Position numbers and translations under genes: made by a program
Shown: piece by piece, positions 8,143 through 61,162 of the stretch
How positions within the stretch are numbered: position 1 is the first letter of the stretch
Layout of the letters: every line of letters starts with the position of its first letter
The notes under the pieces: generated by a model
Told to the model about the DNA's origin: nothing
The model's input: only the letters and a program-made list of their open reading frames with translations
The model's database searches: none
Origin: Octopus vulgaris
Lineage: Eukaryota
Length of the DNA stretch: 64,000 nt
Assembly (NCBI GenBank): GCA_951406725.2
Contig: OX597817.1
Span: 35,774,001-35,838,000, forward strand
Direction of reading: 5' to 3'

Positions 8143-8355
8143 AGGTGGTGAGCTGGCAGAATCAACAGCATGTTGGACAAAATGCCTGGCAGTATTTCTT
8201 CTGGCTCTTTACATTCTGAGTTCAAATCCTACCAAAATTAACTTTGCTTTTTCATACCTTTGGGTGTTAATAAAATAAAGTACCAGTCAAGTACTGAGCA
8301 AGATGCAATCAACTTGCTCCCTCACCTCATCCCTTCAGAATTTCTGCCCTTGTAC
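8143..8355 (+). mobile_element. decayed Meta/MESC-like SINE
   Basis: ggtggtgagctggcagaatc head; ttctgagttcaaatcc B-box-like motif; aataagtaccag. Confidence 0.7.
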
Positions 8356-8596: not shown

Positions 8597-9546
8597 GTTA
8601 TTGTCTGATGAGTTATATCAATTGGAATGATTCGGTATCCGGTGTTGTTTTGCTGGTCATCTCATTGTTATCATTGGTCTTTTGTCTAATGGGAATGGTA
8701 CGCTTGCTTCATTCGATGCTCCGTGGACCTGTAGCTTCAGCTTTGAAGAAAACAATAAACTCTGACATTCCAAAACCATGTTCATTTCTAACTGGATATG
8801 TAGCCATCATTATTGGCGCTATATTAACAATAATTCTTCAGAGCAGTTCTATATTCACATCAACGCTCACACCTTTAGTTGGTATGGGTGTCATTCACAT
8901 TGAGCGAATGTATCCACTGACTTTAGGTTCCAACATTGGAACGACTGCAACTGGTTTATTAGCTGCCATGGCAACTTCGGGAGACAAGCTGAAAGCTGCT
9001 CTGCAAATTGGACTCTGCCATCTTTTATTTAATCTAACTGGCATTTTAATATTTTATCCAGTACCAGTAATGCGTAAGCTTCCTATAAACCTGGCGAAAA
9101 TGTTGGGCAACACTACGGCCAAATACCGTTGGTTTGCTTTCCTGTATTTACTGACTGCATTTTTCCTGCTTCCAGCATTTGTCTTTGCCTTGTCACTGGC
9201 TGGCAAATATGCACTGATCACAGCTTGTGCCATCATCATTCCACTCCTTGCCTTCATCATCATTGTTAATATTCTGCAAAGAAAAATGGAAAACGTCCTG
9301 CCAAAAGTATTGAGGAACTGGGACTGGCTTCCTCTCTGTTTACATTCACTAGAACCAATGGACAAGTTCCTGTCAAAGTTCACAGGATTCTGTAAAATGT
9401 GTCAAAAAAAGCTGGATCAGCCAAGAGCGAATGAAGGATCCAGCCTGAGTACGATTAATAATTCTTGTGGTGTAAGTCCTGGAGCTGACAGTCCTTCAAG
9501 TTTCCATTCTACAGCACGACTAATACAAGATACAACAAAATGTTGA
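8597..9546 (+). CDS. SLC34A2: SLC34 terminal coding exon (C-terminal repeat, TM helices, cytoplasmic tail); SLC34A2-like, invertebrate orthology unresolved
   Basis: Acceptor atatttcag ending at 8596; signature motifs LQSSSIFTS, YPLTLGSNIGTT, ALQIGLCHLLFN, LGNTTAKYRWFA, LHSLEPMD; stop TGA at 9544-9546. Confidence 0.96.
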
Positions 9547-11120
9547 TAATTTAGGAATTAATAGCTCATTATAAAATAATTATTCATTTAGGAATTTTTA
9601 AATTTTGAATCACCTTTTTTTTTTTTTTTTCACCCCTCTCTCATGTGAGAGCAGATCTGTTATCATTTCCTACAACTTTTGTGTAGGTGTGAAAGGGATT
9701 ATATATACACAGTCACATATCTACAACTGTACATATATAATTGTGTGTGATTGTATATATACACACATATATACTTATGAGTTTCTCTGTGTGGTGTGTG
9801 TGGGTGGGTGTGTGTGTCTGTATGTGTGTGTGTGTGTGTGTGAACTTGCATAAATGTTATATTGAGGGTGCTGGCACTGCAGTTTGTAAATATTCTTCAT
9901 CTAAGTAACATAATAGGACCGAGCTAATATAGGGGATCTATTCAAGTGAATGCTTTACTGAAAGATATAGAAGTTTATACCATTATATAAAGCTATCCAT
10001 AGTAAAATTAAGATGTGTATTTATGTGCATTAATTATTATTAAGGCTTGTGCATAAATGCATCTGTTCCTAATTAGTACGCAATAGAATAACTAATGATC
10101 ATGTATGTAAGATATATAATGTATATATTTATATATATCATAAACATCCATATTCATGCATATGTGCATAGATATATGTGTGTAGATGCGTATATGTATA
10201 TATATATATGCATACATATATCAATGTGTATGTATACTATATATGTCTACATACATATATGTATATACATGTTTGTGTGTATAAAGTAAAGCTGTAATCA
10301 CATGTATATATTTGAACAGATTTGCACTAATTCATCATTATATATTTATGTTAGCTAATGGCTGCATATAGTGAACTATATGCTGGCACAATTATTTCCA
10401 AAACCATTTTACAACGACACTATCTCATTGACATTGCTGAATGATAAAAGCTGCTGAGAAAAACTTACTTCAGAAGAAATGAAGTCATTCTTCAAGTTAT
10501 CTTTTGAAGCTTACCTTTATATTAGTTTATTAGTGATTATGAGTAGAAAAAAAAATTCTAGTAATATTAATAACTTAGATGAATATTTAGTAATTTTCAA
10601 AAATTTTGTTTCTTAATTTACAAGCTATTTTAATATAATAATATGTATAAAAAAAACTGGCGTGGAGAAAGAGTAAGCTTGGGTAGCTTATTCTTTAATT
10701 TCAGTCGCTAGTTCATTCACTTCATTTATATCATGACCGATAACTAGGAAAGTATGAACATCATTAATTAATATTCACAAGAAGTAGTAAGCAGTGTAAT
10801 ATAAGCGATGAAATATGTTGATTAGCTGGCTCTTCAACCAAACTGCTTTTAATCCCCATCTCCAGGTCTTTCATTTCATTTACATAATCACTGACCTTTA
10901 GGAAGGCATAAACTTCACATCTTCATTCAACCACCTACTCCGATAAAAACTTAAATTTTGTGCCTATTTAAAACATTAATATATATACATATACACACAC
11001 AAATATATGTGTGTGTATGTATATATATATATATATATATATTAGCTAATCTTATGTTATACACCTGGTAGTTTGCTGGTAAAGCATGTTCACTGGCTCA
11101 GTGTTCATTGGGTATGTAAT

Positions 11121-11641
11121 TAATGAGAGAAACGGAAGATGGCGAGACTTTATTGATCACTACAATCATTTTGACCCATCTAGCATCAAACCCCTGCGGA
11201 TGGGATGCTGCACAACTGATTTAGGTATATCCCTCAGTGTAGATGTGTCTCCTCAGGTGATTTCAAGAGATATTATTAAAATAAACTGTTTCACACAACT
11301 TGTTTTCCTCTTGGTCTTCATGATAGAAATAGCAAATTGGTGGGTACTGCGTCATTCTTATAGAATATCAATATTTTTTTGCTGTATTGTATATTTGTTT
11401 CTTTTTGTATCTGGTTTTTGTGATTGATCTTCTATAACAATGAAGCCGTATCCATTAATTTACCGTTCCTATCTTTGAGGACCAAGAAGAAAATATGCAT
11501 GTCATGTGAAACAGTCTATTTTAATGAGATACTGTTTGAAATCACCTGAGGAGACACATCTACACCCATAAAGGATCACTGGTAGATGAATCGAAACGAT
11601 TGTAGTGATCAATAAAGATTCTTTTATCTTTCATCTCATTA
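11121..11641. mobile_element. foldback element (PLE pseudo-LTR-derived) with hammerhead motifs on both arms
   Basis: Arms about 11121-11372 and 11423-11641 are imperfect reverse complements; TA repeats on the right flank and nearby on the left. Confidence 0.85.
11541..11609 (+). ncRNA. type I hammerhead ribozyme (predicted cleavage after GUA at 11604)
   Basis: ATCAC-CTGAGGA-[GA..CATCTAC...GTAGATG..TC]-GAAA-CGATTG-TA-GTGAT: stem I ATCAC/GTGAT, complete core, near-palindromic helix III ACGATTGT; AATAAA at 11611. Confidence 0.8.
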
Positions 11642-13040
11642 TATATATAGTTAACTCTATTGTAAACAATATTTGAGACTAAAAACCTAATTTATTTACA
11701 GAAACAATTTATGTTCCTCAAAATATGCTTTCTTTAGATACTGAATTAAAACTAAATATCATACTTAATTGGTACCGTTCAAAATAAGGCTAATTTTAAT
11801 TTATATATGTATGTTTTTTTTATAAGCAAGTATCTTTATCGTGAAGATTAAGATCAATTTAGACAAATAAAATTATAAAATAATAAAAATAAGTGATAAG
11901 ACTATAATAATTATTATTAATATGGAAAATATATTTAGGTATTTTACTATAAATTTTGTTTATAAAGTAAAATTTAGTCCTATTTAAAAATATCTTAAAA
12001 TTTTTCTGTTCATTTTTGTTTTGTTTTCAAACACTCAGAATTTTTCATAGGTATAAAGAAAAACTACACAAAAAACATTTTCAATTTCATTTTGTCAATT
12101 CTTTTACATCTTTGGTTAATGTTCTAACTTTGAAACAATGTTAAATATTAAAATTATTTGATTTAAAAAAAAATTATTTACTTTTTTTTTTTGTTTCATT
12201 CTCCTACATTTCTCCTTTTAAAAACATCTGAGAAATATCTTTTTATAGTGTAAAATGACATTTTATATTTAGTTTTTTTTTTCTTTCTTTCTTTCTTTTT
12301 TTTTTTTTTCCAAATTTTAATACAAAAATGATGCCTAAGATTGGCACAAGTGTTCAATTATAGGAAAGAACATAATCAATTATATTGACTCAAGTACTTA
12401 ACCAATATTTGATTCCAGAATGGCAAAATCAACTCTTGCAGGATTTGAACATAGGACACAGAAACTTCTAATATAAAATAATGAATCCTACCCCATTAGT
12501 AGTCTAAATTATTTTACTCCCTAATTGTCATTATATCATTTTTTTTTTTTATCTATCTTAGTCTTGCAAGTCAAAACTAATACATTTATGGAAGAATGGT
12601 TTTAATTTTATCTGTCTCCTGAAAGTAGAGCTACTATGATATACCTGCTACATTGTGATAAAAAAATTTTTTTAAAAAGCATCACATTTTTTTTTTCAGT
12701 GACTATTAATCCTTTTGACTTCTGACCTAAATTGTGAACCACCAATCTTTTATTTTGTTCATGGCTATCAGTGCTTCTGTGTGAGTATGCACGTGTGTGT
12801 GTGTGTGTGTGGTAACTGAAAAGGTTGGTAAATAGGATGAAATACAAAAATAATAAAAGAGAAAATTACTCAACTAACAGGTGGGGAAACACATTTGTAT
12901 GTGTTTCTATTCAGAAAATTAAAAGATAACCTTACAGTCCTCCAGTTTAAATTGAATGATGCTTTGGTGTGGTTACAAAACTCAACACCTCATTGCACTG
13001 ACTAGCATGTTTATTGTTGTTGTTATTATTATTATTATTA

Positions 13041-13705
13041 AGGCAGTGAGCTGGCAAAATTGTTAGCACACTGGGCGAAATGCTTAGCGGTAGTTCATCT
13101 GTCACTACTTTCTGAGTTCAAATTCTGCTGAGGTCGACTTTGCCTTTCATCCTTTCAGGGTTGATTAAATAAGTACCAGTTACGCACTGGGTTGGTGTAA
13201 TCGACTTACCCCCACCCACCTGCAAATTTCAAGCCCTGTGCCTATAATAGAAAAGATTATTACTATTATTATTATTATCGCCGCAGCAGTCTGGGACAAT
13301 TGTCAGCATGCTGGCCAAAATGCTTAGTAGTATTTCTTCCGATTTGAACTTCAGAGTTGAAATTCCATCAAGACCAAGTTTGCTTTTCATTCGTTCAGGA
13401 TTGATAGAATAAGTACCTATTGAGCTCTAAGTTCAATATTATCAACAGAATTTCAGAAAAGATTATTATTATTATTATTATTATTAAGGTGGCAAGCTGG
13501 CAGAATTGTTAGCACATCAGACAAATTGCTTAGCAACATTTCTTCTGGTTCATTTACATTCTGAGGTCAAATTCTGTCATGATCAACTTCGCCTTTTATC
13601 CTTTTGGCATTGGTAAAATAAGTACCGGTTGTGCACTAGGGCCGCTGTAATCAACTAGCACCCCCTCCTCCAAATTTTCAGGCTTTATGGTTATAGTTGA
13701 AAGGC
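13041..13705 (+). mobile_element. three head-to-tail Meta/MESC-like SINEs separated by (TTA)n
   Basis: Heads at about 13041, 13277 and 13486; gcctttcatcctttcagggttgattaaataagtaccag core. Confidence 0.85.
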
Positions 13706-14258
13706 CTGTTATTATTATTACTATCATTATCATTATTTAACCACACATCTCACCTTCTGCTTCCCCACATTTTCTCTTTCAAATTTCAACAGATCTGTCA
13801 CATTTACACTATCTCATTCTCATTTTATTGGCTCTTCCTCTTACCATTTTAATATATACAGTTTTTTGGGGTTCTTTTCTAACCCTCTTATTCCACCTTT
13901 GCCTATGCATCATAAATCCATTGCCATTTGTACCAGATGTCCTTGTATTTATGTTAAGTCTCAGCCATAAAACATCACTGTCCATTGATTAAACACAGCT
14001 GTCATCTGTTCTTTTTTCATTTTATATTCCATTTAACATTGTTTCTTTTTCAGCAAATTTGCAATTTTTTTAATCCTGTTAAAAACCAAAAATAAATGAG
14101 ATAAAGTTGATTTGTTTTAGATTTCCCAAATATTACATAGCCAGAATATCAATTAACTCATTATTGCATTCCATGTGGTTGCTACTGGTTTCTCAATTTT
14201 GGGGCAGCAACTTTCTAACAAATGCCTCAAGTAACAAAATATATGTATATGTATATGT

Positions 14259-37892: not shown

Positions 37893-38125
37893 TTATTTCT
37901 TTACTGCCCACTAGGGGGCTACACACAGAGGGGACAAACAAGGACAGACAAATGGATTAAGTCGATTATATCGACCCCAGTGCATAACTGGTACTTATTT
38001 AATCGACCCCGAAAGGATGGAAGGCAAAGTCGACCTTGGCGGAATTTGAACTCAACGTAGCAGCAGACGAAATACTGCTAAGCATTTTGCCTGGTGTGCT
38101 AACGTTTCTGCCAGTTCGCCGCCTT
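37893..38125 (-). mobile_element. young Meta/MESC-like SINE with TSD
   Basis: Full head ggcggcgaactggcagaaacgttagc; flanked by the direct repeat taagttcactgttctt. Confidence 0.9.
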
Positions 38126-52175: not shown

Positions 52176-52275
52176 NNNNNNNNNNNNNNNNNNNNNNNNN
52201 NNNNNNNNNNNNNNNNNNNNNNNNNNNNNNNNNNNNNNNNNNNNNNNNNNNNNNNNNNNNNNNNNNNNNNNNNNN
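52176..52275. other. assembly gap (100 N)
   Basis: Run of n. Confidence 1.
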
Positions 52276-60680: not shown

Positions 60681-60927
60681 ACCATGGTCACTGATCCCCT
60701 CACTGGTGGAATTTATCAAAGAATAAGTTAAAAAAATAAGTTAAAAAGTGATGTACCTTTGATGTGTAGAGCAATATGGTCTCTATTTTCTGTGACAAAA
60801 TATGTGGGAGTATTTGCCTGGGTGACAGGTTGGATTGGTATGTCAAACATCTGTCCAAGTGCTAGGTTAGTTAGCAGAACACAAGAGTCACAGGCAAAAT
60901 TATCACAGTGATATTTACTCCTTGCTA

Positions 60928-61162
60928 AGGCAGTGAGCTGGTAGAAACGTTAGTATGCTGGGTGAAATGCCTAGCAGAATTTCGTCTTCCACTACGTTCT
61001 GAGTTCAAATTCCTCCGAAGTCGACTTTGCTTTTCATACTTTCGGGGTCGATTAAATAAGTACCATTTACACACTGGGGTTGATGTAATCGACTTAATCC
61101 ATTAGTCTGTCCTTGTTTATCCCCTCTGTGTTTAGTTCCTTGTGGGTAGTAAAGAAATAGAT
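60928..61162 (+). mobile_element. Meta/MESC-like SINE with TSD
   Basis: Flanked by the direct repeat gatatttactccttgct. Confidence 0.9.

Follow-up and report, generated by a model that had tools for sequence, protein, structure and literature searches.

A type I hammerhead motif behind an octopus SLC34-like exon, probably the 3' end of a Hydra-clade Penelope-like element

Results

The window, by which we mean the whole 64-kb stretch of octopus DNA that was analysed, contains the last coding exon of an SLC34-like gene and, behind it, an insertion made of two inverted arms (Table 1). The exon scores over the PF02690 cut-off and its stop codon is at 9544-9546; the upstream exons of the gene lie before the window, in L101. 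Two more SLC34-like last exons are present in the genome, on G000:C25 near 21.35 Mb and on C20 near 0.53 Mb, and the three paralogues match PF02690. The insertion begins and ends about 1.5-2.1 kb behind the SLC34 stop, with the ribozyme core starting 2.0 kb past it. On the + strand after the stop, AATAAA or ATTAAA occurs at 11275, 11280 and 11611, all inside the element, and then at 11745, 11866 and 11882. Elsewhere, the window has copies of a SINE-like repeat of about 170-240 bp, singly at 8143-8328, 37958-38125 and 60926-61096 and as three tandem copies at 13009-13731, and 100 N mark an assembly gap at 52176-52275.

Table 1. Features of the SLC34-like locus and the insertion behind it, in window positions
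Feature	Position	Strand	Detail or basis
Last coding exon, SLC34-like Na+/Pi cotransporter	8597..9546	+	PF02690; acceptor AG read from sequence
(TA)n microsatellite adjoining the long terminus, likely insertion target	11020..11042	.	sequence; (TA)n preference of Hydra PLEs
Inverted arm: loop II complete, G12 and C15.2 not retained, long terminus extended by a tail of about 80 nt	11043..11373	-	
Decayed hammerhead of the inverted arm (antisense copy on the SLC34 strand)	11156..11261	-	
ATTAAA/AATAAA within the antisense arm; no earlier poly(A)-type hexamer follows the SLC34 stop on this strand	11275..11285	+	
Sense arm: 5'-truncated 3' end of a PLE, short terminus, then TATATATA	11374..11641	+	
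Type I hammerhead motif, window sense copy	11541..11609	+	sequence, descriptor, folding
Stem I	11541-11545 / 11605-11609	+	ATCAC / GTGAT, 5 bp
Core CTGAGGA (CUGAGGA)	11546-11552	+	sequence
Stem II	11553-11592	+	2 bp, 2x2 loop, 7 bp; CATCTAC 11557 / GTAGATG 11582
GAAA	11593-11596	+	sequence
Helix III ACGAUUGU	11596-11603	+	sequence
Cleavage triplet GUA; putative cut after A11604	H17 = A11604	+	sequence
AATAAA, part of the element, directly 3' of stem I	11611..11616	+	family alignment

A type I hammerhead motif sits on the SLC34 sense strand. The initial annotation had read it as a stem I, a core, a stem II closed by G-C, GAAA, a helix III and a GUA triplet, and a check against the sequence located every one of these parts where it had been placed. 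The core, C3 U4 G5 A6 N7 G8 A9 with G12 A13 A14, is present throughout in the window sense copy, as is the A15.1-U16.1 pair (A11596/T11603), and ACGATTGT starts at 11596. A descriptor requiring the hammerhead core, a 5-bp stem I, a 2-bp stem II closed by G-C and a UH site matched once on both strands of the 64 kb, at this copy, and had 0 matches in 100 Markov shuffles. Rfam returned no hammerhead family at the motif, neither at the gathering score nor at E up to 10. Stem II of the sense copy has only two pairs, G10.1-C11.1 and A-U, before a 2x2 internal loop; the third pair seen in sibling copies, C-G, is broken here, and loop II is without 37 nt (a motif of 77 vs 114 nt). Folding prediction gives the stem II junction pairs a probability of 0.05 in the free fold. 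The hammerhead does lie just upstream of an AATAAA, as had been pointed out. A special link between ribozyme and hexamer at this gene is not supported, however, since the hexamer trails stem I across the family alignment and was thus brought by the element itself.

The mirror copy that had been described on the minus strand exists as the hammerhead of the inverted arm. Its core was also rightly said to have been lost at CpG sites, with CAAAATGA in place of the sense copy's CGAAACGA, and G12 is gone. Opposite the sense arm, this antisense copy is perfectly complementary to 11536-11565 over 30 nt and 87% complementary to 11580-11617 over 38 nt. Both arms end at TA runs. Within the window tblastn (E up to 1) detected no coding remnant of a Penelope-like element (PLE), and no target duplication could be read in the TA run. 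The window holds a single 5'-truncated, head-to-head insertion in (TA)n. If transcribed, 11148-11617 is predicted to form a long fold-back of about -215 kcal/mol, which makes it a candidate substrate for A-to-I editing.

The host might use this insertion without using the ribozyme, taking its SLC34 poly(A) signal from 11280 or 11611, or keeping the fold-back as a double-stranded 3' UTR element, for example an ADAR substrate. The predicted stability of the fold-back is consistent with this reading, as is the + strand from the SLC34 stop to 11275, which is free of AATAAA and ATTAAA, so that the first three such hexamers are those inside the element. However, host-looking AATAAA hexamers come close behind, at 11866 and 11882, and employing a signal would not demonstrate selection for that signal. 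We consider such use unlikely, though appreciably less so than the other alternatives raised below. It can be compatible with the explanation that we prefer, in which the insertion is a relic of a PLE.

In the genome searched (2.8 Gb, 227 contigs), the stretch 11130-11640 has at least 119 matches (40 scored of 945 candidates). A 19-nt pattern from the 3' half gave 80 exact matches, and its reversed control gave 0. The perfect palindrome ACGATCGT is found in 36 of the 80 and ACGATTGT in 44. The perfect palindrome is that of sister subfamilies, and because it occurs in none of the 46 units of the window's subfamily, the T in ACGATTGT is likely the state of the subfamily itself rather than damage. 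The earlier observation that helix III is one transition off a palindrome thus holds for the sequence, but the difference is common to the window's whole subfamily. Four sister-subfamily copies (L110, L115, L122 and L123) have both an intact core and the perfect ACGATCGT palindrome, and would be better candidates for an activity assay than the window copy.

Besides the window, 7 of 29 pattern-picked loci have an inverted partner. L002, L003, L007, L024 and L047 are inverted pairs that, like the one in the window, have a long end and a short end. In these five, the short arm stops about 45-65 nt past the cleavage site, and the long arm continues for about 80 nt more. A microsatellite is reached within 190 nt by 18 of the 28 ends found, a count made with no background control.

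Upstream, the copies run to ragged 5' ends and on into EN and RT frames. A search with one upstream extension gave at least 44 matches (40 scored of 267 candidates), and the translated upstream copies contain CSCREKTKC, VVYKC..YIG, CRLCSEE and N..CLH. The EN frame has a CxCX5C linker, CxxC and CxH beside E and N, and one Cys only in VVYKC..YIG, so that GIY and YIG do not enclose a CCHH cysteine pair. In L132, a member of the window's subfamily, linker and EN are joined to a 3' end that shares 76% identity with the window's minus arm across 328 nt. L095 is 68% identical to L132 in DNA over 1,016 nt and represents a sister subfamily; it has MRWKAFF (RWK) and ADKTS (DKT in place of DKG) at the N-terminus, followed by the RT core, the linker, EN and then a related hammerhead. 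Residues 27-697 of the protein P0004, one of the six homologues described below, align along L095 by tblastn, with RT before a C-terminal GIY-YIG EN. The hammerhead lies a few hundred nt past the EN frame on the same strand.

The RT call consists of tblastn to homologues and motif comparison with PMC8557442, the RT frame being that of the sister subfamily L095. In protein searches, a 274-aa piece had 6 homologues among 756 candidates (540-757 aa, 28-31% identity), and a 112-aa EN piece had 0 matches among 77. Pfam, run on EN and RT fragments, gave GIY-YIG at E 0.034, under the cut-off, and no RT match. A PDB sequence search with the RT fragment returned only two weak matches, both unrelated. 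In the genome itself, the EN piece has 14,416 first-look candidates, and all 150 of those scored match. The Hydra-type PLE lineage seems very abundant here. No intact ORF was found among the 150 scored EN matches of the 14,416 candidates, and the longest open frame was 349 aa; active copies may exist among the other candidates.

Craig et al. 2021 (PMC8557442) define the Hydra clade by RWK/DKT, CxCX5C, the EN motifs, canonical hammerheads and (TA)n targets. Judged by the motifs tested, the element would belong to the Hydra-clade PLEs. A Neptune-clade label was considered and dropped, as the Hydra-clade definition in that paper fits instead.

Instead of a truncated PLE, the repeated unit could also be a non-LTR retrozyme, which is a short tandem repeat that is non-autonomous and makes circular RNA. 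Animal retrozymes, as described in PMC7229834, likewise have type I hammerheads whose helix III is 2 bp long, and at one locus, L016, two units follow each other in direct order 335 bp apart. However, the window pair is head-to-head and not tandem, a direct-repeat match was seen in only 2 of 30 pattern-picked loci, and the ragged 5' ends continue into EN and RT frames. Set against PMC7229834 and bioRxiv 10.64898/2026.07.22.740005, this continuity with the coding region largely refutes a tandem retrozyme, and we regard that identity as extremely unlikely. L016 itself (G000:C7, near 19.99 Mb), whose units are 96% alike, may be a local duplication or a retrozyme-like dimer. A cis dimer would be possible there if both cores were intact; one is without G12.

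Decay of the core was followed in 49 loci (55 fetched, 6 dropped as the same genomic place), which gave 64 units, 46 of them spanning both core halves. All 12 core positions are kept in 10 of the 46, and G12, which lies within a CpG, has mutated in 15 of 45 units. CpG columns diverge by 0.33, inside and outside the core alike, and the others by 0.10. Because CpG columns of the family alignment decay about three times faster, the data suggest that the repeat copies were methylated. At non-CpG columns the core is changed in 33 of 449 cases (0.073) and the rest in 680 of 6595 (0.103), with p 0.04; when highly variable columns are left out, the rest falls to 558 of 6266 (0.089) and p becomes 0.30. 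Measured against paralogues, the core has no clear excess of conservation over the neutral expectation. For the stems, 86% of cells are paired in 16 hand-picked copies, with one two-sided change and no excess over shuffles, most of these rows having been picked by an invariant 3' pattern.

At 18 of 129 sites the window sense copy departs from the majority of its column, a divergence of 0.14 (range 0.08-0.19). A stricter descriptor is passed by just 3 of the 46 subfamily units, the window, L006 and L021, and the window sense copy is therefore among the better preserved. This, and the slightly greater conservation of the non-CpG core before filtering, count against a simple relic. With 22% of cores intact, a pair with an intact sense core and a broken antisense core is expected about once in six pairs. 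Among the 8 inverted pairs in which both cores could be aligned, the window has one intact core, L007 has both, and six have none. The initial annotation had left it between selection and chance that one core survived and its mirror decayed. With 10 of 46 cores intact and an overall divergence that is typical, chance fits the asymmetry and there is no need for selection. The sense copy likely kept its core by chance.

Alternatively, with the same PLE origin, the host may have taken over the sense hammerhead. The ribozyme would cut SLC34 transcripts at 11604/11605, just before the AATAAA, remove the poly(A) end and lower the mRNA level; this might happen after the fold-back has been opened by editing or splicing. 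In keeping with this, stem I and the full set of 12 core positions are preserved on the sense strand of the gene, and the window copy is one of the three units that pass the strict descriptor. Folding prediction for 11530-11620 alone points the same way: stem I forms at P ~0.8, and the hammerhead fold costs 4-5 kcal/mol above the free ensemble, like that of full-length L006. When the whole sense arm is present, the cost is 9-10 kcal/mol. When both arms are present, P(stems I-III) is 0.0, about 65 kcal/mol stand against the hammerhead fold, and for nearly all core and stem bases the probability of pairing with the antisense arm is close to 1, so that this arm is predicted to sequester the ribozyme. 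The folding energies are equilibrium predictions.

The case for takeover is further weakened by the copy itself, with its typical divergence, its 37-nt deletion and its lost stem II pair. The helix III 8-mer forms a weak duplex, -5.8 kcal/mol in the window vs -10.0 for the perfect palindrome, and there is no cis dimer in the window because the only nearby partner is on the opposite strand. Published systems also speak against it: PMC4209133 reports weak cleavage of animal PLE hammerheads in vitro, and PMC11167929 describes an Anolis PLE hammerhead that required protein, was dispensable for insertion in vitro and had no RNA-seq ends at its cleavage site. We therefore hold host takeover to be very improbable. 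By these predictions it is unlikely that the window hammerhead cleaves in vivo, or in any transcript that also carries the antisense arm. An isolated or dimeric RNA of the motif may still cleave.

Discussion

Taken together, our results make it very probable that the hammerhead belongs to an old Hydra-clade PLE as its 3'-terminal ribozyme motif and was left behind SLC34 by one 5'-truncated head-to-head insertion, with a core likely kept by chance and an activity predicted to be abolished by its own antisense arm. The element would have copied its own 3' end into a TA run, the inverted arm would have been made in that same event, and both arms would then have decayed at a near-neutral rate. In the active element, the ribozyme presumably dimerised through its near-palindromic helix III to cut the precursor RNA, as we infer from PMC4209133. 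In SLC34 read-through RNA, the antisense arm would be made first, zip up with the sense arm and block stems I-III. Since the antisense arm is transcribed first, SLC34 RNA reaching the ribozyme would already carry its inhibitor.

It is conceivable that the insertion now serves the SLC34 3' UTR as a gated ribozyme switch. The hammerhead would be locked in a long duplex by the antisense arm, and A-to-I editing or a different 3' end would release it to cut just before the poly(A) signal. On a broader scale, inverted PLE insertions would silence themselves, since the antisense ribozyme would be transcribed first whichever side the read-through came from. We give this proposal hardly any credence.

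Within the PLE relic that we favour, most features have precedents. The element resembles the Hydra-clade PLEs with a C-terminal EN of PMC8557442 in having RWK, DKT, CxCX5C, no CCHH, CxxC/CxH, a 3' sense-strand hammerhead and (TA)n. Penelope-13_HM is listed there with a 5'-truncated inverted copy and a hammerhead on each strand, and the window pair is built likewise. Hydra-1_Obim is listed there with a different hammerhead, and the hammerhead sequence found here differs both from it and from the other listed Hydra elements compared. With respect to the elements listed in that paper, loop II here is far longer (a 114-nt motif with flanks vs loops of 3-10 nt), helix III consists of 2 bp and a near-palindromic loop, and the tail, in the window and the five similar pairs named above, is about 80 nt vs 30-40.

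Cervera and De la Pena 2014 (PMC4209133) describe paired motifs on opposite strands, separated by about 100-700 bp, as well as single motifs that come from truncated PLEs. The motif here is like their PLE hammerheads in being of type I with a short palindromic helix III, and these are thought to act as dimers. It differs from the min-HHR of that paper, having no extra nucleotide between A9 and G10.1 and retaining a 2-bp helix III. For Penelope, Arkhipova et al. 2013 (PMC3846280) report insertions in which inverted pLTRs lie head-to-head and only one of the two ends bears a tail. The window pair is likewise head-to-head with a tail at one end, but unlike those insertions it retains only 3' ends, with no ORF at the locus. 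In the literature searched, we found no report of this PLE family or of the SLC34 locus. The element is an ordinary one, a new family of an already known kind of PLE end.

Mammalian Clec2-type hammerheads in host 3' UTRs are conserved, monomer-active host features. The window motif resembles them in being a sense-strand motif downstream of a stop codon. In contrast to them, it is one of many copies of a repeat, its divergence is ordinary, and an antisense twin lies upstream of it. Our literature search found no host use of a PLE hammerhead.

With these findings, the known repeats of this genome gain a Hydra-clade PLE lineage that is abundant and decayed and carries a long-loop hammerhead. In genomes of this kind, hammerheads that look intact are to be expected near genes by chance. 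If the window copy did cut SLC34 RNA in vivo, it would matter as a host use of a PLE hammerhead. It would also matter if inverted pairs were better tolerated in genes through silencing their own ribozyme.
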